Virus record (IMG/VR): IMGVR_UViG_3300037631_002865
Span: 1 to 46,317 of that record
From: a virus
Taxonomy: Duplodnaviria; Caudoviricetes
Direction: 5' to 3' (one strand)
DNA length: 46,317 nt
Every line of letters starts with the position of its first letter. Positions within the stretch are counted from its first letter, which is position 1. The notes under the pieces are model-generated. The model ran no database searches. It was not told the origin of the DNA and saw only the letters and a program-made list of their open reading frames with translations. Both the position numbers and the translations under genes were made by a program. Positions 1 through 43,402 of this stretch are shown here, piece after piece.

Positions 1-634
1 CTTTTGGCTTAAAATAACTATAGTGTGTACTAGGACCACCTACAATAATTTTAATGTTAGGTAACCGTTCTTTAATTGCTTTAATAATATAATCAGTAGG
101 CTCTTCATTACAGTAGTAAAGGCTTACACCCAAAAAGTCTGGCGCAAACTCTACCATTTGATCTACTGCCTTATCAAGTATTGGCTTTACATATTCATGT
201 AACTCGTTCCAGTATTGTTCGCCTATCCAGTGCCAATCACGTGGGCCGTCCCAAGGGTCATAATGAATATCCCAGGCATCATCTCCGCCAAAAACGTCCC
301 AAAATGCCCTGTATGCTTCTACATTTAAGTCAAAACACTTTGTTTCAAACCCTGCTGTATTGGTTACACCTGCAAGTTTAGCAATACCATAATGCGGAAA
401 ACCTGGATCCCATTCTGGACACATAAGCAGACATAACTTAGTTTGTCGACTGATATTATACTCAATCTCAACAGGAGCCAGACCTTTTTGTGGTCCTTTA
501 CTCCATTTTTCCATAATCTTCTGTGTAGCAGTGCTGCGGTCTTCTAAATAAGTACCCTCTTCCCTAGTAGGCGGGTCTCTTCGTTTTTTCTGCTGTAGTC
601 TGTACCATGCAATACCTTGATCTTCTTGACTCAT
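1..634 (-). CDS. Cobalamin (B12)-binding domain radical SAM protein, N-terminal part (runs off the left edge; not in the ORF track)
   Basis: The ATG at 634 overlaps the upstream stop (TAATG) and the frame is open to base 1. Hand translation: MSQEDQGIAWY...LLMCPEWDPGFPHYGIAKLAGVTNTAGFETKCFDLN...FAPDFLGVSLYYCNEEPTDYIIKAIKERLPNIKIIVGGPSTH. This fits the B12-binding Rossmann domain of class B radical SAM methyltransferases (P-x-G-I-A-x-L, D-L-N, P-D-x-x-G-x-S, I-I-V-G-G-P). The CxxxCxxC motif would lie outside the window. Confidence 0.8.
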   Translation of the reverse strand, partial: MSQEDQGIAWYRLQQKKRRDPPTREEGTYLEDRSTATQKIMEKWSKGPQKGLAPVEIEYNISRQTKLCLLMCPEWDPGFPHYGIAKLAGVTNTAGFETKCFDLNVEAYRAFWDVFGGDDAWDIHYDPWDGPRDWHWIGEQYWNELHEYVKPILDKAVDQMVEFAPDFLGVSLYYCNEEPTDYIIKAIKERLPNIKIIVGGPSTHYSYFKPK

Positions 635-1917
635 TACGTTAGAACCTCAAACGCAATATTGTGGAAAGTATCATACCATTTGGTGCCACGATGACGGTCC
701 ATAGTGTCACTAAACTCTCTAAAATGCTGTCGTTTTTCAGCACAATATTCTTCACTTAGTGAATTATCTTCTAGTCTTTTAATTGCTTGTTCTATCCCAT
801 GTTGATACCAGATATTTGGTACATTGTGACTAGGCTCGTATGACTTTAATGCCGCAACTGCTTTTGCACGTATCTCAGGTTGTACGATCCTGACATCCAA
901 ATAACTAGGACTATCTAACATAATTGGGCTCCAAATGTAAAGTCTGTTCTTTTCTTTACTATCATACCAGCTACGGTGATTGTGTACCCAATCAAGTACT
1001 TGTGGTATAGCATCGTAGTTATAAGTTTGAAACACTGTGTAATGTTTGATCTTCCAACTTTGAGGAAATGCATCGTATATTTTTAAAATATTTCTTTCAA
1101 TGTTTTCCCATTTAGTTGGGTACCTAATATATTCGTTTTTATCGTAAATATGATCAATACTAATCTGTATCTCGCCATTTTTAAAGCGTGACATTGTATT
1201 ATAAAATATCTCGTTCCACTGTGTTAGGTTTGTTGTAAGTGCAATATAACAGTCTGTGTTGCCACTGTCAAGTATCATTTGCATGATTTCAATATTACGT
1301 TTGATTAGAGTTGGTTCGCCTCCAGTTAGGTATAGTCGTTTAAGTTTGGGTGCAAGTTTTTTAATACTCTTAACAAACTCATCACTTTCCCACCAACGCC
1401 AGTTAGCTTGTTCATCTAGCTTTAACTCATGATCCCATTCTTTACGTAACCAGAACGGCATATTATCATCTTTACGCTGTATAAGACGTCTTTCATCTGC
1501 AACTCTATCACTACTAAGTGCCCAGCAACTATTACAACGTAGGTTACAAAAATTTCCCAAACGAAGTTCTAAGCTCTGTGGCAATGGGGGGTTGCTAGTT
1601 TGATATTCTTTAGGCACAGCCCAATCTTTAAGCTCACCAAATGCACTTTGTCTTGAGCTTTGGATACCACTATCTTCTAGTTTCCAACATACATCACATG
1701 CTGACGGTCTTTCCCCCTTGAGCATTTGTTTACGAACGTTCACCATGTAGTCACTATTCCAAATCTCTTCAACACTATGAGTACCAAAGTTTAGTTCTTG
1801 TCCATCACCGCCAGTTGCGTGGATATTTTCATTAATACTACAACACAACTTAACACTGCCTTCAGTGTTACTGTTTAAGTTAGTAAACGGGTATAAACAA
1901 TATGTATTACTGCTCAC
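634..1917 (-). CDS. Radical SAM protein with N-terminal Twitch/SPASM-like Fe-S domain
   Basis: CNLRCNSC (CxxxCxxC) and GGEPTL; N-terminal CLYPF...GSVKLCC...EEIWNS...ACDVC; GTG start preceded by AGGAG. Confidence 0.92.
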   Translation of the reverse strand: MSSNTYCLYPFTNLNSNTEGSVKLCCSINENIHATGGDGQELNFGTHSVEEIWNSDYMVNVRKQMLKGERPSACDVCWKLEDSGIQSSRQSAFGELKDWAVPKEYQTSNPPLPQSLELRLGNFCNLRCNSCWALSSDRVADERRLIQRKDDNMPFWLRKEWDHELKLDEQANWRWWESDEFVKSIKKLAPKLKRLYLTGGEPTLIKRNIEIMQMILDSGNTDCYIALTTNLTQWNEIFYNTMSRFKNGEIQISIDHIYDKNEYIRYPTKWENIERNILKIYDAFPQSWKIKHYTVFQTYNYDAIPQVLDWVHNHRSWYDSKEKNRLYIWSPIMLDSPSYLDVRIVQPEIRAKAVAALKSYEPSHNVPNIWYQHGIEQAIKRLEDNSLSEEYCAEKRQHFREFSDTMDRHRGTKWYDTFHNIAFEVLT

Positions 1918-3202
1918 GATATTCTCCTATACACAATAATTCTGGCAGTGCTTCCTGCCAATTTTCATTTCTAATACGGTCCCAACGTTCAAATTCTTTA
2001 ATCGTATCTGGCAACTCACTGGTGCGGTCTGTTGTATTCATAAAGTTTAATAGTCCCTCTGCGCTACTAACAAACTGATTAGCAGGCCAATGATCAGGAA
2101 TAAAGTTTTCCTGTTTGTCTAACCATGCAAGATGTTCCTCCCATCGTTGGGTTACTTTTATTTTGTAATCATTTGGCAATGCTTGCATACTCAAGAACTT
2201 TGGGTCCAGCAAGTTATTTAACCTTATCTCACCTGGCGGAATAAATCCTTTTCTTACCCAATCTTCATGAAAGTCTGGGAAATGTAGTACGTTCATTAAA
2301 CTAAGTGTAGGGCACAAATCAAACTCAATATGTGTAAGTTCTGGATCATCTAGCATTGCTTGTCTATTTGCTTCAATGTCTGACCAAATAGTACCTTTGC
2401 GTATATACTCACCATGTGTTCCCATTGCGTCTAAGCTAGCACTTACTTTAACTTGCTTAAATTGTTTCCACAAATCAAATACATGTTGTTTTTTATATGT
2501 AAGCTGGCTAAAGTTTGTAGTATATAACACACTAACATTTTGTGCATGACCAGTTTCAACCCAGTGGTTCATAATTTCCCAGTGCATGTCTGTTATTAGT
2601 GGTTCTCCACCTGCCCAGTATACTTCTTCTACTGTATCCAAATACGGGCGTAGTTCTTCTAGGAAGCCTGGTTTATTTTTAAGTTGTATAAATTTTTGCT
2701 CTGCAACATCTTTAGGCACAGCGCCAAACTCTTTAACAAAATCATCAAACCAACTGGTACTAAATGTTGGGCTACAACTACGGCAACTCATATTACACAA
2801 GTTACTAAAACGGAAGTCCATGTATGTAAGATTGATATCATCATATTGCCCGTCCGCATGTGTATCTTTTGTACGCCAGAACTGATGTGCAAAACGATTG
2901 TTCATATTTTTACGAAGTGTATATGCGTTACTATCGTTTTCAAGTTCATAACAACGGTTACATGCATTACTAGCTTTACCATTTAGCATGTTTGTACGAA
3001 GCTTTTTAGCTAGGTCACTGTTCCACAACTCTTCAAGAGTATGTGTATTAGTATTTCCATAATCGTTACCGTCATTATGTTCAGCTAAACAACAAGGGAA
3101 AGTTCTACCATTTGGCCATACATGCATATGTATCCATGGTGCCATGCAGAATACTTTACTGTCAGTTAATAGTGGATTAGGCGATTCTATATCTTGGGTC
3201 AT
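1907..3202 (-). CDS. Radical SAM protein with N-terminal Twitch/SPASM-like domain
   Basis: CNMSCRSC and GGEPL; N-terminal CMAPW...GRTFPCC...EELWNS...ACNRC. Confidence 0.92.
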   Translation of the reverse strand: MTQDIESPNPLLTDSKVFCMAPWIHMHVWPNGRTFPCCLAEHNDGNDYGNTNTHTLEELWNSDLAKKLRTNMLNGKASNACNRCYELENDSNAYTLRKNMNNRFAHQFWRTKDTHADGQYDDINLTYMDFRFSNLCNMSCRSCSPTFSTSWFDDFVKEFGAVPKDVAEQKFIQLKNKPGFLEELRPYLDTVEEVYWAGGEPLITDMHWEIMNHWVETGHAQNVSVLYTTNFSQLTYKKQHVFDLWKQFKQVKVSASLDAMGTHGEYIRKGTIWSDIEANRQAMLDDPELTHIEFDLCPTLSLMNVLHFPDFHEDWVRKGFIPPGEIRLNNLLDPKFLSMQALPNDYKIKVTQRWEEHLAWLDKQENFIPDHWPANQFVSSAEGLLNFMNTTDRTSELPDTIKEFERWDRIRNENWQEALPELLCIGEYREQ

Positions 3203-4499
3203 CTGGCATTATCTCATATTTTTTTAATTGTTCTAACTCTGGGTATGCTTTATATGCATCATTGTTTCTAATCGTATCAAATTCTTTTGTGTTCCACAGA
3301 AACTCGTTAAATTTTGTATCAAAGGTATTGTCAGCATACATAAACTTAATAATACCCTGTAGGTTATTTGAATCATGTTGCCAGTCTGGGTTTTGTTTTT
3401 TGCGTAGATCTTCAATCCATTCAATATGTTTTTCCCACTTTTTGGCTACTTGTCTTTTATAATCTTCTGGCAAGATTTGTATACTTAAACGTTCAGGATG
3501 TGTTAAGATAGTTAAGTTTAAACTGTTAACACTAACTAGTCCTTCTTCAATCCATTCACGATGAAAGTCTGGCCAATGCAGTACATTGTAAGCACTAATA
3601 GTACTACTAATAAAGAACCTAGTATCAGGACACTCAGCTATCATTTCACGCCGATTCTTTACAACATCTGTCCAGATAGTATCTTTACGCAAGTATTCTG
3701 CACGTTCCCAATTATCATCCAAACTGGCACCAACGTTAACATTTGTAAACTTATTCCAGTAGTCAAACACTCGCTTTTTACCCAAATGTGTTTTAGTAAA
3801 GTTGGTTGTATAACTAATATTTACATCAGTGTTGCCCCACTCTAACCAAGTATCTAACATTTTATAATGCTCTGCTGTAATTAATGGTTCGCCTCCAGCA
3901 AAGTATGCGTGGCGTACTTCCTGAATTGCAGGCAGTGCATCGTCCCAGAATGTTTTAGGTAACTCTAATAGTGCAGGCTCTTTGTAGTTCCATGCCTTTT
4001 TAGCATCGTTAATCCAACTACTACTAAACTGTGGACCACAACTTAAACAGCGTAGGTTACACAAGTTATTAAATCTTACGTCCCAGTAGTAAAAGCGTGG
4101 GTCATCATGCGATCCATCTGCATGTGTGTCTTTAACACGATCAAACATATCGCCAAAGTCTTCATTTAGACTTATACGCAGTGTTCTAATATCTGCATCT
4201 TTTTCCTGTTGATAGCAACGTCTACATGCCCGGCTGGGTTTATCTGCCATCATATTACGGCGCAACTCTCGCATTTGTTCAGTGTTCCAAAGTTCACCAA
4301 TGCTATTGTCGTTTAAATTTCCCATAAATTCGTCGGAAAGATTATTGCTTTCAGGAAGTATTACGCAACAAGGAAACGCCTGTCCACTTGGCCAAAAATG
4401 CATAGTGACCCAAGGCGCCATACAAAAAAACTTACTATCGTTTAGTAAATGGTCTTCATTCATCAGCGGTTTCTTCTTCATCAAATTTTCCAAATGCAC
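3177..4499 (-). CDS. Radical SAM protein with N-terminal Twitch/SPASM-like domain (true start may be ATG 4481 or 4463)
   Basis: CNLRCLSC and GGEPL; N-terminal CMAPW...GQAFPCC...ELWNT...ACRRC; evident paralog of 1907..3202. Confidence 0.92.
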   Translation of the reverse strand: MHLENLMKKKPLMNEDHLLNDSKFFCMAPWVTMHFWPSGQAFPCCVILPESNNLSDEFMGNLNDNSIGELWNTEQMRELRRNMMADKPSRACRRCYQQEKDADIRTLRISLNEDFGDMFDRVKDTHADGSHDDPRFYYWDVRFNNLCNLRCLSCGPQFSSSWINDAKKAWNYKEPALLELPKTFWDDALPAIQEVRHAYFAGGEPLITAEHYKMLDTWLEWGNTDVNISYTTNFTKTHLGKKRVFDYWNKFTNVNVGASLDDNWERAEYLRKDTIWTDVVKNRREMIAECPDTRFFISSTISAYNVLHWPDFHREWIEEGLVSVNSLNLTILTHPERLSIQILPEDYKRQVAKKWEKHIEWIEDLRKKQNPDWQHDSNNLQGIIKFMYADNTFDTKFNEFLWNTKEFDTIRNNDAYKAYPELEQLKKYEIMPDDPRYRIA

Positions 4500-6144
4500 C
4501 TACTAAATTATCTTCACTGTACATTCTGGTAGGTATATTTCTAATCTTTCTATAGTTAATCAAGCTCTTTGCTAGTCCAGGATGATGCCAAACAAAATCA
4601 TCATCCCAATGAAAATCAACTGGTTCATCTTTTAATAGTTCTTCCTTGCATTTACGATTATATTCCATCTCAGAAATATCATATAGTGTAGCACACATAT
4701 CATAATATTCAACCATCTCAGGAAAAATCTCCTTGAAGTCTGTATTACGTCTTGCATCAGTTGATTTAATAAACAAGTACCAGTTACGTCTAGCATCATC
4801 AATTTCTCTTGGTTCAAGATATGCATCTGTTTGTACACGGTTACGTTTGTCACAAATAGTTTTCCACATTGCTTGTACTCTAGACCATGCACGTACTTCT
4901 TCATCGCTAAAGTACATATGATATTGTTTGTTGTGATCCTCTTTTGGATACTTATGCCAGTTTGCTTTCCACTTCCATCGATCCATAAAATCTGTTGTTA
5001 AGTCAATATACTCATTAAATGCGTCAGGAAGTCCAACTAGTGTCCAATGGTTAGGCTCAGTACAATGAGGAATATCAAACATAATCTTTGGATATTCCAT
5101 ACCAGGTCTCTGAAACTTACGGCGCCATTCCAGTATTTTCTCAAGGAAGCTGATGTAGCTTGTTACACACATAATGTTATATGTGTTCATAATCTGGATT
5201 CCATTAAAGTCATCAACATGATGGTGACCCATCTTGTCCATAATTGCATTAATGTTTGCTTCAAACAATCCCAAGTCTAAACCACTACGTGTATATGATG
5301 CTCTATCGCCCCAACTTTCAATACTACTAAAAATCTGGAAACGTTTAATTTTCTCATCGTGCAACAGCTCATTAACCTGGTCACACATTCTCTCTACTAG
5401 TTTAGTTTTGATATTTAAGTTGGTATTAATTTGCAAAACCATTTCACTACACTCGCCTGTTTGTTGTAGTTTCTTTAAAAACTTCCAAACGTTTTGTTGT
5501 AGTAATGGCTCGCCGCCTGTAATGCGAATTACCTTAAGTGTTTTACGTAAGTAAGGCCACCATTTCCAAAAAGCGTCAACATACGGGTTATCATCCTCTG
5601 CATAGATTTTTTCGTGCTGTACTTGTAAGTGTGGTGCTTCAGGGAAAAGCCCTTCCTTGTCCATCTCTTTTTTCCATGCACTACTTGCTTTAGGATGACA
5701 ATAGGCACACTTCATGTTACATTCGTTACCAAAACTAATTTCCAAGTATGTTGGTCTATAGTTATGATCCCATCCGTTTTCCAAGATCATTTCATGTGCA
5801 TCTGGTGTAAGTAACAGTTCGTTTTTACTTTTGATAACACGGTCACTAATTTGATTGTCGTCAATATCTTCAACACGCCAACAATAATTACACTCATCAG
5901 GACGTTCGCCGTTAAGCATTTGTTTACGTCTAGCAATCTTATGTTTTGTATTGTGCAATGCACTTGGATTGTCTTTAATTTCTTCTAGTGGTATTTTATG
6001 TGGTAGCGGATGATAACAACTGTGTGTGTGGCCGCTTTGTAGATACAACGTACTTGTAAGAAATTTTGCAGTACACATGCTATCACAGCCGTATACTTTT
6101 TTCATATTTTCTCGTTCGTCTAGGTAATCTATATTCTTATACAT
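4456..6144 (-). CDS. Radical SAM protein, second subfamily
   Basis: CNMKCAYC and GGEPLL; N-terminal CTAKF...GHTHSCYHP...ECNYCW. Start moved from the track's 6177 to ATG 6144, which overlaps the upstream stop. Confidence 0.9.
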   Translation of the reverse strand: MYKNIDYLDERENMKKVYGCDSMCTAKFLTSTLYLQSGHTHSCYHPLPHKIPLEEIKDNPSALHNTKHKIARRKQMLNGERPDECNYCWRVEDIDDNQISDRVIKSKNELLLTPDAHEMILENGWDHNYRPTYLEISFGNECNMKCAYCHPKASSAWKKEMDKEGLFPEAPHLQVQHEKIYAEDDNPYVDAFWKWWPYLRKTLKVIRITGGEPLLQQNVWKFLKKLQQTGECSEMVLQINTNLNIKTKLVERMCDQVNELLHDEKIKRFQIFSSIESWGDRASYTRSGLDLGLFEANINAIMDKMGHHHVDDFNGIQIMNTYNIMCVTSYISFLEKILEWRRKFQRPGMEYPKIMFDIPHCTEPNHWTLVGLPDAFNEYIDLTTDFMDRWKWKANWHKYPKEDHNKQYHMYFSDEEVRAWSRVQAMWKTICDKRNRVQTDAYLEPREIDDARRNWYLFIKSTDARRNTDFKEIFPEMVEYYDMCATLYDISEMEYNRKCKEELLKDEPVDFHWDDDFVWHHPGLAKSLINYRKIRNIPTRMYSEDNLVGAFGKFDEEETADE

Positions 6145-7606
6145 TGTATTTGTCTTTCCATTCGTGGTATTGTTCACTAAACTCAGGGAAGGTATCTAAT
6201 ATACTAGTATCTCTTCGTCTATCGTGATCATCAAAAAATCTTACAAAGTTTTCTTCAGCTTCTTCACGTTGCTCATCAGTATCAAATCCTTGTTTCATAA
6301 ATTCAATACTGCGATCAAATCGCTCAATCTGGTGTGGTTTAAACCCTACCCAACGGCTATCACGATGCTTGTCAATATTTGCTTTCATAAATTCAAGTGC
6401 CTCATCTGCATAATGCCAATGGCTTTCTGGTGTTAGTTGTAAACTCTGCCAAAGCGGATAACGCAACATTGGTGTATCAATAAACACTTTGTGGTGTCCA
6501 TACACTACAATGTTTCCGTCAGCATCTCGTCTACTTTTAGTTACATTATGTATACGCTGTAGTTCTAGTATGCCTTCAAGTAACTTTTTAATACTTGGCA
6601 AACTAAGCATGTTGAATGTGACAATAAACGTAACAAGTCCTTCATCTACTCTGGTTAGATAATTATTTACGTTATTCCACATACGGTCAAAATCTAGTCC
6701 GTGCCGCATATACTCTGCTTGATCGCCCCAACCGTCTACACTAACAAATGCTCTAAAGCGTTTCAGTTTGTTGTACTCGCTGATAAAACTTACTTTGTCT
6801 ACAAACTTGTCCCATAACTTATCAGGTACACTAGCGTTTGTAGTGACAGCCATTTCAAGGTCTGGACGACCGTTATCAATTACATAGTCAAGTACACGGA
6901 ATGTATTTTTATCCATAAGCGGCTCACCGCCTGTCATACGGAAGTTCTGAAGTTTAGGGTATAGTTCAGGCCACCATTCCCAAAACGCTTCTACATATGG
7001 ATTATGTTCACGGTTTGGAATAGGATACTGTCCAATTTGCTTGAAATAGTCAATACTATTATGAGGAACAATAGTATCATAAGGACCATTCTGCTCAATA
7101 TCTTCTGCCCACTTACTACTTAAATGTGGACTACAATAACTACATGCTAAGTTACAAGCGTGGTTAAAGTTAACTTCCATGAAGCGAGGTTCAATGTCGC
7201 CATCAGCACCTTTTTCCAATACATCATCCCATCCAGCTTGTGCCCAAGGCTCACTACTGCGATAATGTCTATCACTGTTAAAGGATCTATCCATCTTTTC
7301 AATATTCCAACAGTAGCTACACCCATCAGGCTGTTCGCCGTCTAGCATCATCTGCCGTTGTTCTTTTTTCTGTGGAGTATTGTGTAACCCTTTTGGGTTA
7401 TCTGTAATATTTTCAACTTCAATTTTGTGAATAGGAGGAAGGAAACAACTATTAGTTGTTCCGTTGGTTAAGTGAACACTAGTCCACAACCACTTAGCCA
7501 TACACATGGTAGGGCTAATTTTATCTAGTTTTGGTTTTACTAACTCTGCTGCTGTTTCCGGATCTGGATCAAGCTCATAGTTTACAATTTCTACGTCATC
7601 GCTCAT
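6137..7606 (-). CDS. Radical SAM protein, second subfamily
   Basis: CNLACSYC and GGEPLM; N-terminal CMAKW...GTTNSCFLP...GCSYCW; paralog of 4456..6144. Confidence 0.92.
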   Translation of the reverse strand: MSDDVEIVNYELDPDPETAAELVKPKLDKISPTMCMAKWLWTSVHLTNGTTNSCFLPPIHKIEVENITDNPKGLHNTPQKKEQRQMMLDGEQPDGCSYCWNIEKMDRSFNSDRHYRSSEPWAQAGWDDVLEKGADGDIEPRFMEVNFNHACNLACSYCSPHLSSKWAEDIEQNGPYDTIVPHNSIDYFKQIGQYPIPNREHNPYVEAFWEWWPELYPKLQNFRMTGGEPLMDKNTFRVLDYVIDNGRPDLEMAVTTNASVPDKLWDKFVDKVSFISEYNKLKRFRAFVSVDGWGDQAEYMRHGLDFDRMWNNVNNYLTRVDEGLVTFIVTFNMLSLPSIKKLLEGILELQRIHNVTKSRRDADGNIVVYGHHKVFIDTPMLRYPLWQSLQLTPESHWHYADEALEFMKANIDKHRDSRWVGFKPHQIERFDRSIEFMKQGFDTDEQREEAEENFVRFFDDHDRRRDTSILDTFPEFSEQYHEWKDKYNV

Positions 7607-36553: not shown

Positions 36554-37432
36554 ATGAGAAAACAGAATTATCTTAACAACAAGGATATGCTGAAGGAAAT
36601 ACATAAAAGTAAACTAACCTATTGTCACTCAGTTGATGACGAATATGGTAGATTTGATATCATTGTAGACAACTACGAAGATATTTTTGATCCAGATATT
36701 ATCCAACAAGCAAGAGAGAACAGAGCTAGTGTATTAAGTTCACAAGGTTATGAGGAATCATACAAAAGATGGCAAGACGCTGGCAGACGTACAAAAGATA
36801 AACCAAAGCAAGCTGAAACAAGAGTACAACCTGAAGAAATTGATCCAGACGACTTAATCTTTAGATTAATGACATTTGAACATGTACCTGGTGATTCAAA
36901 ACGTAAGACTAACCCTAAAACAGAAGCAGATCGTCACGTTAAAGTTAACTTTCCACCATTTAAACACTATGCAAAACGTGATGGTGAAACACAAGAAGTA
37001 GTACGAAGCCACTGGGAAGGTGGGATCGACAACGGAAAATTTAGCACAACACATGGACACACAACAAATGAATTAGCAAAGATGTATATTAAACTATGTG
37101 AGCGTTATAGTATGCGCAGTAATTGGCGAGGATACACGTATGTAGATGAAATGCGTAGTCATGCACTAATGCAACTATCTCAGATAGGTTTAAAATTTAA
37201 CGAAGCAAAGAGTCAAAACCCATTTGCGTACTACACAGCAGTTGTTACAAATAGTTTTACAAGAGTTCTTAATCTTGAAAAGCGTAATCAAAATATACGT
37301 GATGATCTGTTACAAGAGAACGGGTTTAATCCTAGCTTTAGTAGACAACTTGACCATGAAGCAGCGTCCAAAGCAAAATGGGACGAACAAATGGAAAAAG
37401 ATCGCAAAGAGGCAACTGGAACAAATTTCTAG
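36554..37432 (+). CDS. gp55: Late-transcription sigma factor, T4 gp55-like
   Basis: NYLNNKDML, SNWRGYTYVDEM, KFNEAKSQNPFAYYT....NSF.R.L..EK; gp55-gp47-gp46 synteny. Confidence 0.85.
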   Translation: MRKQNYLNNKDMLKEIHKSKLTYCHSVDDEYGRFDIIVDNYEDIFDPDIIQQARENRASVLSSQGYEESYKRWQDAGRRTKDKPKQAETRVQPEEIDPDDLIFRLMTFEHVPGDSKRKTNPKTEADRHVKVNFPPFKHYAKRDGETQEVVRSHWEGGIDNGKFSTTHGHTTNELAKMYIKLCERYSMRSNWRGYTYVDEMRSHALMQLSQIGLKFNEAKSQNPFAYYTAVVTNSFTRVLNLEKRNQNIRDDLLQENGFNPSFSRQLDHEAASKAKWDEQMEKDRKEATGTNF

Positions 37433-37438
37433 TTATAC

Positions 37439-37467
37439 TTGACAAATCCTAACATAGAGTATATTCT
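37439..37467 (+). promoter_or_regulatory. Sigma70-type promoter, probably giving a leaderless gp47 mRNA
   Basis: TTGACA-17 nt-TATTCT; ATG 37474 follows 6 nt after the -10 box and has no Shine-Dalgarno. Confidence 0.7.
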
Positions 37468-37473
37468 AACTAC

Positions 37474-38481
37474 ATGACATTTTTTAATAAAGCGGCGTGT
37501 TTTACTGACATTCACTTCGGAAACAAGAATAATAGTAAACAGCATAACAAAGACTGCGAAGATTTCGTAGATTGGTTTATTGCGAACAGCAAAGACTGTG
37601 AAACTTGCATATTTTTAGGCGATTGGCACCACCACAGAGCTGGTGTTAACGTTAGTACACTGAATTATAGTGTAAACAATGTAAGGAAACTAAGCGAAAA
37701 CTTTGAAAAGGTGTATATGATTATGGGCAACCATGATTTATACTATCGTGAGAAACGTGAACTTAATAGTTTGCCATATGCGGGCTTATTTGATAACGTT
37801 ACCTTAGTTGAAGATGTATTTCAACAAGATGATGTTGCATTAATACCCTGGCTAGTGGGAGACGAGTGGAAACACATCAACAAAATAAAAGCACGTTATA
37901 TGTTTGGGCACTTTGAGTTGCCACACTTCAAGATGAACGCAATGGTAGAGATGCCTGATCATGGTGGTATTAATGAAAGCCACTTGCACGGTCCTGAATA
38001 TGTATTCAGTGGACATTTCCACAAGCGTCAGCACAAAGGTAACATTCATTATCTAGGGTCACCATTTCCGCACAACTATGCTGATGCATGGGACGATGAT
38101 AGAGGAATGATGAAGTTAGAATGGGGCGGTAAGCCAGAACATTTAAACTTTGATGGTCCAAGATATCGAACTGTGCCACTGAGTAAGCTAATTGACGATG
38201 CTGACTCTATTTTAAATCACAATACATACTGTCGTGCTGTACTAGATGTGAATATTACGTATGAAGAAGCAAACTTTATTAAGGAAACGTTTGCGGCACA
38301 ATATCAATTACGTGATATTACACTAATGCCCAGTAAAAAAGAAGAACATGCACAAGATTGGCGGCAAGTAGACGATTTAGAGGTTGAAAATGTAGACCAG
38401 ATAGTGTATAATAGCTTAAATGCTGTAGACAGTGAAATGATAGACAAAAAGTTATTAGTGGATATATACAACAACCTATGA
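37474..38481 (+). CDS. gp47: Recombination endonuclease subunit (Mre11/SbcD-like)
   Basis: Metallophosphoesterase motifs DIHFG, LGDW, GNHD, GHFE and SGHFH. Confidence 0.93.
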   Translation: MTFFNKAACFTDIHFGNKNNSKQHNKDCEDFVDWFIANSKDCETCIFLGDWHHHRAGVNVSTLNYSVNNVRKLSENFEKVYMIMGNHDLYYREKRELNSLPYAGLFDNVTLVEDVFQQDDVALIPWLVGDEWKHINKIKARYMFGHFELPHFKMNAMVEMPDHGGINESHLHGPEYVFSGHFHKRQHKGNIHYLGSPFPHNYADAWDDDRGMMKLEWGGKPEHLNFDGPRYRTVPLSKLIDDADSILNHNTYCRAVLDVNITYEEANFIKETFAAQYQLRDITLMPSKKEEHAQDWRQVDDLEVENVDQIVYNSLNAVDSEMIDKKLLVDIYNNL

Positions 38482-40253
38482 TTATTATTAAAGACATCAC
38501 AATCAAGAATTTCATGAGTGTGGGTAATGTTACTCAGGCTGTACGATTTAACGACAATGGACTTACACTTGTACTGGGCAACAATGTTGACTTAGGCGGA
38601 GATGGTAGCCGTAATGGCACTGGTAAGACAACAATAATCAATGCACTATCATATGCAATGTATGGTAATGCACTTACTAACATACGTAAAGACAACCTTA
38701 TCAACAAAACAAATGGTAAAGGTATGATAGTTACACTGGACTTTGAAAAAGATGGTGTTAACTATCGTATCGAACGAGGTCGCAAACCTAACCTTTTTAA
38801 ATTTTATGTTGACAATATCGATACTGACGAAGGCAACGAGGCACAAGGTGAGAACCGCCAAACACAAGAACAAGTGGATAAACTGTTCGGGATGAGTCAT
38901 GATATGTTTAAACATATTATCGCCTTAAATACATATACAGAGCCCTTCCTTAGTATGAGAGCAAATGATCAAAGAGCGATCATTGAACAACTACTTGGTA
39001 TCACTATGTTAAGTGAGAAAGCGGAGGCTCTTAAAGAACAACAAAGGTTGAATAAAGATGCAATCAAAGAAGAAGAGTATCGAATTAAGGCAGTTGAAGA
39101 TGCAAATCAAACAATTGCGAAGAGTATTAGTGACCTTGAGCGTCGACAAACCCTCTGGCAAACGAAAAAACAAGAAAGCCTGCAAGAACTAGAAATAGCT
39201 ATCAACGTATTAGATAAAGTTGATATTCAAGCAGAGATCGCAAAGCATAAAGAACTAGCTGAGTACTTGTCAAAGAAGAGTCGGCTAGACGATGCTAACC
39301 GCTGGATCTCCAGAATAGATGCTGATACTAAAAAACTAGATAAACAAATTATCAAACTAGAAAAAGAGATAGTACTACTTAAAGATGAAAAATGTCATGC
39401 ATGTGGACAAGAGTTACACGATAACAGTCATGAGGAATTACTACGTAATAAAGAAGACCAACTAGCTGATGCACGTATGCAAATTTTAGCTAACGGTTCG
39501 CAAGAACAAGAACATTCAGAAGTGATTACTGAAATAGGCGAACTAGGTCAACTACCAAGTACACTCTATAATACAGAGCAAGAAGCGTTTCAACACCAGA
39601 ACCAAGTTGATAAATTACTTACAGAATACGGAAACAAACAATCCGAAACAGATACATATCAAGAACAAATTGACAGTCTAAAGGAAACTGCACTACAAGA
39701 AGTTAGTTGGGATAAGATGAATGAACTTGTGCGTATAAAGGAACACCAAGACTTCCTGTACAAACTGTTAACAAACAAAGATAGCTTTATACGTAAACGT
39801 ATTATTGAGCAAAACTTACAGTATCTAAATTCTAGACTTGCATACTATTTGACTAAACTGGGACTTCCACATGAAGTTTCGTTTCAACCAGATCTCGCTG
39901 TAGAAATTACAGAACTTGGTCGTGAACTAGACTTTGACAACTTATCTAGAGGCGAACGTAATAGGCTAATACTTGGACTTAGTTGGAGTTTTAGAGATGT
40001 ATTTGAAACTATGAATACGCCACTTAACTTCCTTGCTATTGATGAACTTGTTGATAGTGGAATGGATACTAATGGTGTTGATAGTGCACTCAGTGTACTT
40101 AAAAAAATGGAAAGAGAAAGAGGCAAAAACATTTTCCTCATCTCACATCGAGATGAACTACAAGGTAGAGTTAATACTATCTTACAAGTTATTAAAGAAA
40201 ATGGCTTTACATCATTTAGTGTAGACACGGAGATTGTCGACATTGCTGGATGA
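38478..40253 (+). CDS. gp46: Recombination ATPase subunit (Rad50/SbcC-like)
   Basis: KNFMS, Walker A NGTGKTT, coiled coil with CHAC zinc hook, LSRGE signature, Walker B LAIDE, and ISH. Confidence 0.95.
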   Translation: MIIIKDITIKNFMSVGNVTQAVRFNDNGLTLVLGNNVDLGGDGSRNGTGKTTIINALSYAMYGNALTNIRKDNLINKTNGKGMIVTLDFEKDGVNYRIERGRKPNLFKFYVDNIDTDEGNEAQGENRQTQEQVDKLFGMSHDMFKHIIALNTYTEPFLSMRANDQRAIIEQLLGITMLSEKAEALKEQQRLNKDAIKEEEYRIKAVEDANQTIAKSISDLERRQTLWQTKKQESLQELEIAINVLDKVDIQAEIAKHKELAEYLSKKSRLDDANRWISRIDADTKKLDKQIIKLEKEIVLLKDEKCHACGQELHDNSHEELLRNKEDQLADARMQILANGSQEQEHSEVITEIGELGQLPSTLYNTEQEAFQHQNQVDKLLTEYGNKQSETDTYQEQIDSLKETALQEVSWDKMNELVRIKEHQDFLYKLLTNKDSFIRKRIIEQNLQYLNSRLAYYLTKLGLPHEVSFQPDLAVEITELGRELDFDNLSRGERNRLILGLSWSFRDVFETMNTPLNFLAIDELVDSGMDTNGVDSALSVLKKMERERGKNIFLISHRDELQGRVNTILQVIKENGFTSFSVDTEIVDIAG

Positions 40254-40416
40254 TATTGATAAAGATTTACTACAAAGCCTAGGAGGCATGATATTTGAGT
40301 CTCCTGATAAAGGCAAAACAATACGTAGTAGACCTAGTCCTGAGCATCCAATCTTTCTACTTTCTAACGGAATACTACCAATCGATATTTGGTACAAAAT
40401 ATACGGAGACGGATAA
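40234..40416 (+). CDS. Small hypothetical protein
   Basis: 60 aa with GGAG upstream; IFESPDKGKTIRSR; ends LPIDIWYKIYGDG. Confidence 0.65.
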   Translation: MSTLLDDIDKDLLQSLGGMIFESPDKGKTIRSRPSPEHPIFLLSNGILPIDIWYKIYGDG

Positions 40417-40688
40417 TGGGAGACGACTACTTAGGGACATCATCAACCTACACTATTACTACTGATAGCGATATTAGCGGCGATTACAGTATTGATTTGT
40501 CTGATGTCACCGATCTTGGTGCAAGTACTACTACGTTATCAACCGGGACTTATATTGGTTCAAACCTGTCAGGAATCACATTTGGTGAATATGAAGATAC
40601 GTCACGTAAAAAATTACGTGATGAAGGCGAATTACCGATTGACATTTGGGCCAAAATGTATAATAATGGAGTTATAGATGACGACTAA
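40416..40688 (+). CDS. Small acidic Ser/Thr-rich hypothetical protein
   Basis: ATG 40416 overlaps the previous stop (TAATG) with GGAG upstream; ends LPIDIWAKMYNNGVIDDD. Confidence 0.7.
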   Translation: MGDDYLGTSSTYTITTDSDISGDYSIDLSDVTDLGASTTTLSTGTYIGSNLSGITFGEYEDTSRKKLRDEGELPIDIWAKMYNNGVIDDD

Positions 40689-41409
40689 TTATATTTTTGA
40701 TCTCGATGGCACACTAACTAATGCTCGAGAGCATATTGACACACAGTTTAAAGATTTTATGCATGAGTTTACTGACAAGTACTCGTGCAGTATCTGTACT
40801 GGCAGTGACTATGCAAAGGTTGAACAACAACTTGGAAAAGAACTTACTGATAAATTCGATACACTATTTTTAAGTAGTGGCAATCATGTCATGCAAGATG
40901 GTGAAGACAAGTACAAAAGTACATGGAAGTTATCAGGAGAAGAATATTGGTTTTTGATGGAAAAAGCTGAAGATAGTAAGTTTTTTGATAAGACAGTTAG
41001 TCAACATCACAATATAGAACAACGAATTGGCTGTGCAAACTTTAGTGTTATTGCAAGAGACAGTAGCTTAATGGACCGCCAAGCATATCACAATTGGGAC
41101 AATGATCGTAATGAACGTAAATCAATTGTAAAACAATTTACCGATCTATTTGGCTACAAATCATCTGCAGTGGTTGGTGGCAAAGTAAGTATCGACATAA
41201 TACAAAAAGGCAAAGACAAGGCACAAATACTACAATACTTCGAAACATCAGATATTATACACTTTTTTGGCGATAAAATTACACCCAATGGCAACGACTA
41301 CACACTAGCAATGGCAATTAACGAACTTGATAATGGCACCTCGCACAATGTAACTAACTGGCAAGAAACACACGAAATACTTCAAAGGCACATAAAACGG
41401 CATTTTTAA
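40678..41409 (+). CDS. HAD-superfamily (IIB) phosphomannomutase-like enzyme, eukaryotic PMM type
   Basis: FDLDGTLT.AR, TGSDY.K..QQL, IEQRIGCANFS, GGKVSIDI...G.DK and IHFFGDK..PNGNDY. Confidence 0.8.
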   Translation: MTTNYIFDLDGTLTNAREHIDTQFKDFMHEFTDKYSCSICTGSDYAKVEQQLGKELTDKFDTLFLSSGNHVMQDGEDKYKSTWKLSGEEYWFLMEKAEDSKFFDKTVSQHHNIEQRIGCANFSVIARDSSLMDRQAYHNWDNDRNERKSIVKQFTDLFGYKSSAVVGGKVSIDIIQKGKDKAQILQYFETSDIIHFFGDKITPNGNDYTLAMAINELDNGTSHNVTNWQETHEILQRHIKRHF

Positions 41410-41453: not shown

Positions 41454-41894
41454 ATGCATTGGACACACCATGGTATCCTTGTTGAAGAGATACCAGATGA
41501 TTATATTGGTTTTGTATACATCATTACAAATCTGACTAACGATAAAAAATACATAGGCAAAAAATTAGCCAAGTTCAAAAAAACTAGGCCACCACTTAAA
41601 GGCAAAAAGAGAAAAAGAAAATCATTAGTAGAAAGTGATTGGCGAGACTATTGGGGATCGTCAGACAAACTACAGGCAGACGTAGACGAATTAGGCCCAG
41701 AAAACTTTAGTAGAGAAATCTTATATTTTTGTACAACACGTGGTCAACTTTCCTACCTTGAGGCAAAAGAACAATTCGACAGAGAGGTTTTACTCACTGA
41801 TGAATACTATAATGGCATAATAAATGTCCGCATCGGCGGATCTCAGGCTCTCAAAGAATCACTAAAAAATAACATACCCTCCTTGAAACCATAG
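41454..41894 (+). CDS. Minimal GIY-YIG-family nuclease-like protein
   Basis: GFVYIITNLTNDKKYIGKK, a later Glu (SYLEAKEQ) and Asn (YYNG); strongly basic insert KFKKTRPPLKGKKRKRK; only 146 aa. Confidence 0.8.
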   Translation: MHWTHHGILVEEIPDDYIGFVYIITNLTNDKKYIGKKLAKFKKTRPPLKGKKRKRKSLVESDWRDYWGSSDKLQADVDELGPENFSREILYFCTTRGQLSYLEAKEQFDREVLLTDEYYNGIINVRIGGSQALKESLKNNIPSLKP

Positions 41895-42200
41895 TATTGA
41901 GGGCTAGAGAAACACTAGCTCGGAATCTTACTTGAGGGCGAACAAACCAAATGACCAGGCTCTGTTGAGCTATTACAACCTGGAAGTATTTCTGAGTACG
42001 TAGCCTTTATTGCGACTCAGTAGCTTGCGTTGAAAGCAGCATGTAAAGGGGTACAGCACAACCGCCTCTGCTAGTTTACTAGTTTTGCTATAAAGGTGTA
42101 CAAGGTGACTGGTAATATCAGAATCTTTTGTCGTGCTTGGCCGTATCAGGCTAAGTGCGACTTTAGATCATGGTAATAATCAATTATATCAATCATGATA
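41895..42200 (+). ncRNA. Candidate structured non-coding RNA of unknown class downstream of the GIY-YIG gene
   Basis: ORF-free, with consecutive stems at 41901-41921, 41955-41983, 41992-42020, 42047-42067, 42070-42083, 42109-42121, 42130-42161 (13 bp, three G-U pairs) and 42167-42199; possible pseudoknot 42004-42010 with 42090-42096. Confidence 0.6.
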
Positions 42201-42236
42201 TAATATACGTTTTCTAATGTTATCGAATGAAATAAT

Positions 42237-42279
42237 TCAATCGAACGATAGTGAAGATTGATGATGTCGTAAGACATCA
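42237..42279. other. Two adjacent Watson-Crick hairpins with GNNA loops
   Basis: TCAATC/GATTGA enclosing AC-GATA-GT, then TGATGTC-GTAA-GACATCA. Confidence 0.6.
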
Positions 42280-42321
42280 GATAAAGATAAAACTTACATA
42301 GATATAAATGAACACTTCAGA

Positions 42322-42558
42322 TTAAAATTTTCGAGTGTTTTTGCTTTGCATGGCGTCTATTGCTTCTTTTTCTTTTTCCCTTTTCTCTGTGAATGCGTCC
42401 ATAATTTCACTTAGTTGGGATAATGGCATCTGGTACAATTCGTCTACTCTAAATGCACCTTCACTGTACAATACAATATCATATAATTGTTTTCGTAGGT
42501 CTCGATTTGCTTTGGTCATTTTATCAACCATACTTTGCGCCGATTCTGGGCTAATCAC
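42322..42558 (-). CDS. Small baseplate/tail assembly protein (gp51-like position); probably made as a -1 frameshift extension of the upstream gene
   Basis: GTG start with no Shine-Dalgarno; the frame is open back to the T9 run; LYDIVLYSEGAFRVDELYQMP. Confidence 0.65.
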   Translation of the reverse strand: MISPESAQSMVDKMTKANRDLRKQLYDIVLYSEGAFRVDELYQMPLSQLSEIMDAFTEKREKEKEAIDAMQSKNTRKF

Positions 42559-43394
42559 GAGTCGTTTGTGAAAAAAAAAGTTGGGTTAAATTCCACTGCA
42601 CTTTTAAACTTTTTACCACATTCTTCATTACTACATTCAAACTTAAACTCCTTGTCAATACCATTGGCATTGATCTGTTGGTTAATTTCTTGTAGTTTTT
42701 TGATTGTTACGCTGTCACTATTAGATAGCCAAGCAAGTATTGATGTTATATTGTCAATAACTTCAGTGGATGGTGTGATAATTTTTTCGATACTGTCTGC
42801 GAGGATCATCATACTTGCTGCTGTTGATCGCTCTAAACTTTGCTGAAAGATTTCATGCTGTTTTAATTGATCAGTTTCGTTTTCTAACTGTTGTAGCAAT
42901 TGTGCATTTTCAGTTATCCTGATCTGATTACTTGTTATAGATTTCAAACTATTTGGTTTAAAAACAATAGTTAGTCCGTTACTAAGTTCGATCTCAATAC
43001 CGTTTACTGGTTTTATTTGATTGAGGATGTTTATTATTTTTATCTCATATTCTTCAGTTGATTCACAGTGTGGGCATTTTGCTTCTGTTCTGAGTGTACC
43101 TTCTTCGTTATTATTAATTCGGCTTGCCAATAAGATAACGTCTACATCTGGTAGCATGATCTCATATGGATTTTCCATGTCAGGTACAATACTTTTAAGT
43201 ATCTCAAATAAACTTTCGCCGTTATATACACTATCTGGAATACTCAGTAACATTTCGTCTTTGAAGCTCAAAGGCATAACACCAATCTCATTTTGATCGG
43301 ACATTTTAATGTTAGATGTGTACCATTTACCCTCGGTAGGCAGTTTTATGTACATCTCTTTGTGTCTGTAAAAGTCTAGTAGTGGGTCTGTCAT
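42555..43394 (-). CDS. Baseplate hub assembly chaperone, T4 gp26-like
   Basis: YIKLPTEGKWY, PLSFKDEMLL, DVDVILLASRI, CPHC and CSNEEC zinc motifs, C-terminal FFF. Confidence 0.8.
   Translation of the reverse strand: MTDPLLDFYRHKEMYIKLPTEGKWYTSNIKMSDQNEIGVMPLSFKDEMLLSIPDSVYNGESLFEILKSIVPDMENPYEIMLPDVDVILLASRINNNEEGTLRTEAKCPHCESTEEYEIKIINILNQIKPVNGIEIELSNGLTIVFKPNSLKSITSNQIRITENAQLLQQLENETDQLKQHEIFQQSLERSTAASMMILADSIEKIITPSTEVIDNITSILAWLSNSDSVTIKKLQEINQQINANGIDKEFKFECSNEECGKKFKSAVEFNPTFFFTNDS
42570..42579 (-). other. Putative -1 programmed ribosomal frameshift site (T TTT TTT / T TTT TTC)
   Basis: ACT TTT TTT TTC shortly before the gp26-like stop; the -1 frame reads F-H-K-R-L-V-I-S-P-E into ORF 42322..42558. 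Confidence 0.65.
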
Positions 43395-43402
43395 AATCTT
43401 CC

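Follow-up and report, generated by a model that had tools for sequence, protein, structure and literature searches.

The locus and its genomic context

The window, i.e. the whole stretch of 46,317 nt that was analysed (IMG/VR record IMGVR_UViG_3300037631_002865), comes, from the profile matches of its proteins, from a large T4-like myophage, of whose genome it represents 46.3 kb. Its minus strand carries baseplate genes; these are followed on the plus strand by the late sigma factor, gp47, gp46, a HAD gene and a GIY-YIG gene. Among cultured phages, the sigma factor is best matched in PA5oct, Phosso and jumbo phages of the GAP32 type (41-46% identity). Directly after the stop codon of the GIY-YIG gene, a gap of 427 nt (41895-42321) separates it from two convergent genes. 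With the window's first 633 nt left out, this is the longest gap between called genes, the runner-up measuring 135 nt, in line with the claim of an earlier sequence-only reading that no other long gap exists. The features of the locus are the following, all positions being those of the window.

36554-41409, plus strand: upstream block of late sigma factor, gp47, gp46, a small ORF and a phosphomannomutase-like HAD gene
41454-41894, plus strand: stand-alone GIY-YIG nuclease of 146 aa (SegE_GIY-YIG, phrog_447), from profile matches and slot comparison
41877-42177, plus strand: structured RNA-type element as a whole, ~300 nt, its first helix arm inside the last codons of the nuclease gene
41877-41938, plus strand: variable 5' domain with hairpin 41901-41921, self-paired and without a spacer-like segment
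41877-41881/41934-41938, plus strand: 5' helix, read by eye from alignments
41955-41983, plus strand: helix 41955-59/41979-83 with nested helix 41963-65/41975-77, double changes at 5 of 8 pairs
42003-42097, plus strand: pseudoknot 1, loop 42003-09 with 42091-97 (covariation model)
42029-42069, plus strand: conserved core with pseudoknot 2 (42029-32/42059-62) and purine stem 42047-51/42065-69 (alignment, descriptor)
42038-41/42086-89, plus strand: closing helix of the junction that encloses the conserved core (covariation model)
42110-42116, plus strand: box 1, TGGTAAT, in a small hairpin (alignment)
42130-42161, plus strand: hairpin of 13 bp that separates the boxes and includes G-U pairs in its plus-strand form
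42171-42177, plus strand: box 2, TGGTAAT, 61 nt downstream of box 1 and the predicted site at which RNA would pair with DNA
42178-42279, plus strand: AT-rich tail, 26% GC (sequence composition)
42237-42/42256-61, plus strand: tail stem around a conserved purine motif at 42243-55 (alignment)
42262-42279, plus strand: tail hairpin with C-GTAA-G loop (hairpin scan)
42322-43394, minus strand: convergent genes of 78 and 279 aa; baseplate-hub genes occupy the same slot in cultured relatives

Elsewhere in the window, five radical SAM or SPASM genes in tandem precede four unannotated genes of ~300 aa (634-7606), and a run of nine A at 42571-42579 (nine T on the coding strand) lies towards the end of the 279-aa gene, immediately ahead of the 78-aa gene that overlaps it.

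Fold and extent of the structured element

The plus strand of the gap folds better than 200 of 200 shuffled sequences (z -3.01), while the minus strand shows no fold excess (z -0.07; 99 of 200 shuffles). All five stems named in the sequence-only reading are found in the sequence and in the centroid fold. Its deduction of a plus-strand RNA from the G-U pairs holds for the strand; the G-U bias does not necessarily point to RNA. Across 25 window-class sequences a 49-pair model with two pseudoknots was 98.3% paired, compared to 37-44% for slid controls. Double changes, the covariation for which a check had been suggested, were observed at 16 of these 49 pairs (0 of 500 shuffles), figures that overstate the certainty as the model was chosen from the same alignment and the sequences are related. 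Both pseudoknots of this conserved plus-strand structure are backed by compensatory changes. It continues past the stems into the tail, to about 42280; the CTGGT/ATCAG stem is variable and carries box 1. At four other loci (L086, L123, L128 and L134) the nuclease frame extends 60-130 nt into the RNA, with the 5' domain overlapping the coding sequence.

The RNA class had not been recognised from sequence, and an Rfam scan of the window at gathering and E-value thresholds likewise returned only chance matches, with no intron, RNase P or other ribozyme family among them. ARAGORN found no tRNA in the window, and a promoter and terminator scan gave no signal above chance level. Four metatranscriptome runs cover the block and the structural genes in a low and patchy manner at very low depth. 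A single 216-nt RNA contig covers 41842-42057 and none lies over 42058-43400; these contigs give neither strand nor ends and are too sparse to show a discrete transcript. Many contigs break within the RNA; a genome end at this position was considered and rejected, as the breaks occur at varied places, several of them at the T-run.

RNA classes and the link to Polynucleobacter-1

Three classes, W (that of the window), B and C, have an alignable 3' core in common. Class A has the twin boxes described below, and the core was not detected there by the tests used. The 5' part of class C corresponds to Polynucleobacter-1 (RF01718), which was matched in 4 of 20 loci scanned, all of them of class C; the RF01718 covariance model has no match in the window, the 5' domain of which differs. 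This family of 141 nt omits core, boxes and tail, and is related to the window element as the 5' part of a sister class whose 3' core aligns with that of the window. The part of its publication accessible to us (PMC2864571) gives no function for it. Model R1, comprising only 6 pairs, and nhmmer joined the window class neither to the GAP32 group nor to class A, and blastn with the window RNA and one class C RNA gave no meaningful match in cultured phages. A literature search that covered open sources, i.e. neither subscription journals nor bioRxiv supplements, retrieved no description of the RNA beyond Polynucleobacter-1; catalogues of candidate phage RNAs may list it. The structure of the element is real, conserved and, apart from the Polynucleobacter-1 5' part in class C, uncatalogued in Rfam and the open literature searched.

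Twin 7-nt boxes

Two boxes about 60 nt apart flank the last hairpin of the element, and each variant is found in both places (GGGTAAT, GGGAAAT, ACATGAT, ACGTGAA, ACAGGAA, GCATGAT, AGATAAT, GGATGAA). In class C, the boxes are identical at all seven bases in 101 of 102 distinct parsed RNAs (6 more were not parsed); positions 1, 5 and 7 vary separately, and shuffles reach 68-72 matches at most. The class B boxes match in 31 of 40 cases, the remaining 9 differing at base 7, and within the window class L138 carries a change in both boxes. A column scan over 510 nt of 62 aligned sequences revealed no other RNA column that tracks the boxes (MI 0.48 or less versus 0.87-1.2), and no internal RNA partner that could act as a guide was found for them, either in class C or in the cultured copies.

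The nuclease does not account for the boxes either: among 58 proteins compared, no residue determines the box, only a moderate association of C-terminal columns with box positions 5 and 7 being observed, above shuffles that are blind to kinship. Two deep protein subfamilies accompany the same box, and sister proteins within starred clades carry different boxes, so that the double box change must have arisen repeatedly. In six cultured phage genomes, both boxes carry the same variable base in 22 of the 23 copies that could be parsed, out of 25; it should be noted that only one box base varies in enterobacterial copies and that orthologues do not count as independent cases. Both box variants occur within one genome in Munch, EJP2 and Hallingskeid. 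The box rule consequently acts per locus and not via one genome-wide protein. All four GAP32 copies share one box, as do all four XaC1 copies. In the simplest reading, both boxes would answer to one complementary strand at the locus, namely the template DNA.

The AT-rich tail

The tail is rich in small hairpins of a kind known from single-stranded DNA. Class C tails contain 77 C-GNA-G or C-GNNA-G hairpins on the plus and 33 on the minus strand against 1.9 expected for each, and 16 short-loop hairpins occur in 36 W tails against 0.6 expected, with more in B and C. The purine motif is present on the plus strand of 92 of 161 tails and in none of the upstream RNA stretches checked; in its strict form it occurs in only 9 of the 36 window-class tails, 24 having a variant, and is absent from the four copies of GAP32. 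In ColE1, picked for a perceived resemblance, the motif matches once, at position 1332 of the primer strand, a short way downstream of the origin and ~150 nt beyond the second of two G6 runs; this match is probably the primosome assembly signal of the plasmid. Such a signal is placed on the strand exposed downstream of the ColE1 origin in the accessible part of PMC3167613.

Copies in cultured jumbo phages

GAP32, PA5oct and Phosso have a long gap in the same slot, beside an EndoVII or RusA-like gene, and Vibrio phage 2.275.O has a gene there instead. Our structural descriptor at first missed GAP32 and was relaxed by one base after one GAP32 copy had been seen. In this relaxed form it finds four GAP32 copies, all on one strand and in gaps with no or hardly any genes, while three shuffled sequences yielded nothing; it further recovers 20 of 21 copies in five other genomes and 59/59 W, 93/93 B and 45/119 C loci. 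It gave no further match in 1.25 Mb of flanks except three core-only chance matches in the 99%-complete genome G006. The relaxed form fails to pick up 74 of the 119 loci of class C, the genuine copy in G006 and all 4 loci tried from class A. A single GAP32 copy used as BLAST query matched 267 places in 62 phage records, with 3-5 per record among the 60 listed; Sharanji, a jumbo phage of E. coli K-12 (host MG1655), has four. Several of these copies (L404:1334-2068 and other records) have been annotated as series of small hypothetical ORFs, which are probably erroneous calls.

The cultured copies are co-oriented and 50-140 kb apart, and TG-n-TATAAT-like sites lie upstream of 20 of 23. Among nine cultured records searched, six carry detected element copies and none carries the nuclease gene. 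Sequence profiles run in both directions did not join the environmental and the cultured groups; the relaxed descriptor, synteny and the tail motif nevertheless make common descent of their elements likely. No descriptor match was obtained in the syntenic gaps of Phosso and PA5oct, nor a match of model R1 in Phosso. The 1-kb Phosso gap (L144:9259-10660) contains a similar-looking hairpin and is directly followed by RNase HI. The PA5oct gap (L142:6667-8181) is annotated as four tiny ORFs and by eye holds a hairpin between two near-identical boxes; none of the four ncRNAs listed for this phage in PMC7318152 lies within it.

The GIY-YIG protein and its relation to the element

The 146-aa protein matches Pfam SegE_GIY-YIG (PF19835; E 1e-35, 123 bits against a cut-off of 25) and phrog_447 (E 8.5e-38). 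The Pfam profile spans residues 3-123, with no separate C-terminal DNA-binding domain, and the basic stretch (residues 37-57) lies within a predicted beta-hairpin, as the domain-only protein with basic insert had been described. PDB sequence searches with the nuclease found no solved structure with a sequence match; the best fold match is the catalytic domain of I-TevI, a weak one (E 0.16, probability 0.97). The idea that the lack of a binding domain sets the protein apart has to be given up, as GIY-YIG proteins consisting only of the catalytic domain, such as T4 EndoII, are not unusual. The phrog_447 family occurs in 523 phage records, often labelled 'NAD synthetase', a label of PHROG 447 and of many phage records that does not fit a GIY-YIG domain.

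Gene and element are closely linked in environmental phages. The DNA downstream of 80 close protein relatives in IMG/VR falls into RNA-bearing groups in 71 cases and not in 8, one being too short. Among 194 loci found from the motif side and having 1 kb or more of upstream sequence, the gene lies immediately in front in 184, more than 450 nt away in 8 and is absent in 2, the records being redundant and 48 shorter loci without the gene left out. An unrelated ORF separates gene and RNA in all seven inspected of the eight distant loci (L169, L174, L180, L198, L221, L225 and L236; ORFs of 70-341 aa), which shows that the spot accepts cargo genes. Of the two loci without the gene, L201 lacks twin boxes and could be a chance match. 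In L193, a RusA-like gene stands directly in place of the GIY-YIG gene, with the same small ORF on one side and, on the other, an RNA that shares 97.7% identity with the L056 RNA. Conversely, seven RNA-less proteins including that of Melnitz form a well-supported (starred) branch inside the RNA-linked proteins, and the complete Melnitz genome has no match to model R1, which did find the G006 copy. On this quick protein tree of 148 rows and 149 columns with many open forks, the RNA classes do not each fall on one branch, and a minimum of four changes is required for class C. Homologues without RNA (L034, L044, L067, L079) likewise carry the basic stretch.

An obligate or guided ribonucleoprotein of nuclease and RNA is not supported, because each partner occurs without the other and a guide-length spacer is absent. 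The proposed association of the two survives as the linkage of a conserved structure to the gene in environmental loci, and is not supported as an obligate partnership, the element occurring without the gene in L193 and cultured phages and homologues, as in Melnitz, without the RNA. The further step to an IscB- or TnpB-like guide is not supported by the alignment, which, searched for a variable guide beside a scaffold, contains no variable segment of guide length: its variable parts are self-paired hairpins, and only the 7-nt box varies.

The protein is more likely an interchangeable, independent branch-resolving enzyme, judging from its slot. G006 and the complete Melnitz genome lack both the phrog_423 and the phrog_244 resolvase families; as G006 has the GIY-YIG gene, this suggests that the GIY-YIG protein may be a third interchangeable resolvase. 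Both phiN3 and S-SRM01 encode distant homologues alongside partial phrog_423 (EndoVII-like) matches. The slot swap offers a testable function for phrog_447.

Discussion

In this study, we describe what we consider, with a confidence somewhat above even, a new large phage RNA class that recognises its own DNA via a re-programmable 7-nt box, acts there by priming replication or as a ribozyme built on a double-pseudoknot core, and is present in 1-5 copies in hundreds of jumbo-phage genomes, cultured E. coli phages included. For its mode of action we propose a model to which we give slightly less than an even chance, in which the element would act in cis, its transcript pairing with its own DNA to form an R-loop replication primer, with the nuclease probably an independent branch-resolving enzyme. 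The unit would be transcribed as part of the operon in the window, and in enterobacterial jumbo phages from an extended -10 promoter belonging to the unit. The folded core would then expose box 1, which could pair, in the wake of the polymerase, with the template strand of box 2; the hybrid may persist across the AT-rich stretch and provide a 3' end for leading-strand synthesis, while the displaced plus strand might fold into hairpins and load the primosome.

Consistent with this R-loop model are the near-complete identity of the class C boxes with no other column tracking them, the match of the boxes per locus, the co-oriented, dispersed copies with promoter-like sites and the tail hairpins, together with a tail motif whose ColE1 match lies on the primer strand; ColE1 itself has two same-sense G6 runs (928 and 1175), and Phosso encodes RNase HI directly after the syntenic gap. 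Several observations speak against it. Fourfold-site skew gave no replication signal in GAP32, G006 or the window, and whole-genome skew showed no origin either. A hybrid of 7 bp is short, and a G-T wobble in the tolerated direction occurs once only (L431) and never in class C. The connection to the cultured copies depends on the relaxed descriptor, synteny and a tail motif that is missing in its strict form from GAP32 and from most window-class tails, and the slot is filled by a gene in Vibrio phage 2.275.O and by gaps without descriptor match in Phosso and PA5oct.

A ribozyme, in which box 1 serves as a guide in the manner of the EBS1-IBS1 pairing of group II introns, and which nicks DNA, or cuts or joins RNA, at box 2, appears unlikely to us. 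The double-pseudoknot core with unpaired bases invariant across classes and the sharp bounds of the 7-nt identity would fit such an activity, but no Rfam ribozyme or intron matches, no joint or skipped form appeared in the four RNA runs (at very low depth), and the hairpin tail would be left unexplained.

We regard as improbable that the element is a free RNA scaffold or decoy with two boxes that a single dimeric protein binds, or that must be identical to make contact with one another. Its size and conservation fit such a role, as does the single box common to all copies of GAP32 and of XaC1; however, boxes differ between copies of one genome and match within each, three box positions vary independently, and, as a minor point, the RNA is not conspicuous in the four metatranscriptomes. 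A cis-acting transcription or packaging signal, with a polymerase that pauses or makes a jump from the first box to the second, or with a folded RNA that alters the polymerase or tags the DNA for processing, seems improbable to a similar degree. Template jumping would need identical boxes, copies are promoter-linked, co-oriented and dispersed, and a T-run precedes the hairpin in many members, yet the element abuts convergent genes in the window and in the syntenic GAP32 copy, and no skipped form was seen in the RNA runs, whose depth is low. That the GIY-YIG protein and the RNA form an RNA-guided or RNA-dependent nuclease we consider very improbable, since the upstream position of the gene at 184 of 194 motif-first loci, the 5' helix overlapping the gene end, the RNA contig across this junction and the moderate association of C-terminal columns with box positions 5 and 7 (kinship-blind shuffles) are outweighed by partners found apart, two deep protein subfamilies with the same box, a basic stretch retained in RNA-less proteins and the missing guide-length variable segment.

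Comparison with known systems

IscB with its omegaRNA and TnpB with its reRNA combine a RuvC or RuvC+HNH nuclease and an obligate cognate RNA, in which a variable unpaired guide of ~15-20 nt lies beside a fixed scaffold. The window locus resembles them in a compact nuclease gene adjoining a structured RNA, but differs in having a GIY-YIG fold only, no guide-length spacer, no transposon context and separable partners. Guides of the box C/D or TIGR type have fixed C and D boxes and a Nop-domain partner; the boxes of the element in contrast vary, including the G of the sheared pair, and no Nop domain was found among 30 window proteins scanned.

The nuclease itself resembles enzymes that act without a separate DNA-binding domain. 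According to the available parts of the respective reports, T4 endonuclease II is such a GIY-YIG protein and acts ahead of gp46/47 (PMC2764454), and GIY-YIG enzymes of the Slx1 type resolve junctions (PMC3045582, PMC9071465). The window protein has this architecture in common with both, with no sequence match to solved structures, while homing endonucleases of the I-TevI type carry a separate C-terminal DNA-binding domain, which it lacks.

For the R-loop model, the closest comparisons are the T4 and ColE1 origins. The T4 R-loop origins oriF and oriG are presented in the accessible sections of PMC4412123 as a promoter plus unwinding element, without a large conserved folded RNA or twin boxes; promoter, AT-rich stretch and several dispersed sites in a T4-like genome are features the element would share with them. 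For GAP32-like jumbo phages, our literature search found no paper mapping replication origins, and the element supplies exact candidate origin sites in cultured E. coli phages, with a ready compensatory-mutation test. In ColE1, RNA II primes via rG-dC pairing, again as far as the same sections describe it (PMC4412123). A long structured transcript, a same-sense twin motif, an A-rich stretch and then a GAGCG-n-AGCGA-type motif on the transcript-like strand are common to both, by analogy and not by homology: no Rfam match to RNA II occurs in the window, and the sole, core-only descriptor match in ColE1 lies at 1961, outside the origin. The G6 runs of RNA II are 247 nt apart, whereas the element has mixed 7-nt boxes ~60 nt apart, two pseudoknots and several copies per phage genome. 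Kinship of an R-loop primer to RNA II would hence be one of analogy, not of membership, while a ribozyme result would make the element categorically new. If self-recognition is true, a large folded RNA with an exchangeable 7-nt box for addressing DNA would join the few mechanisms of RNA-DNA targeting.
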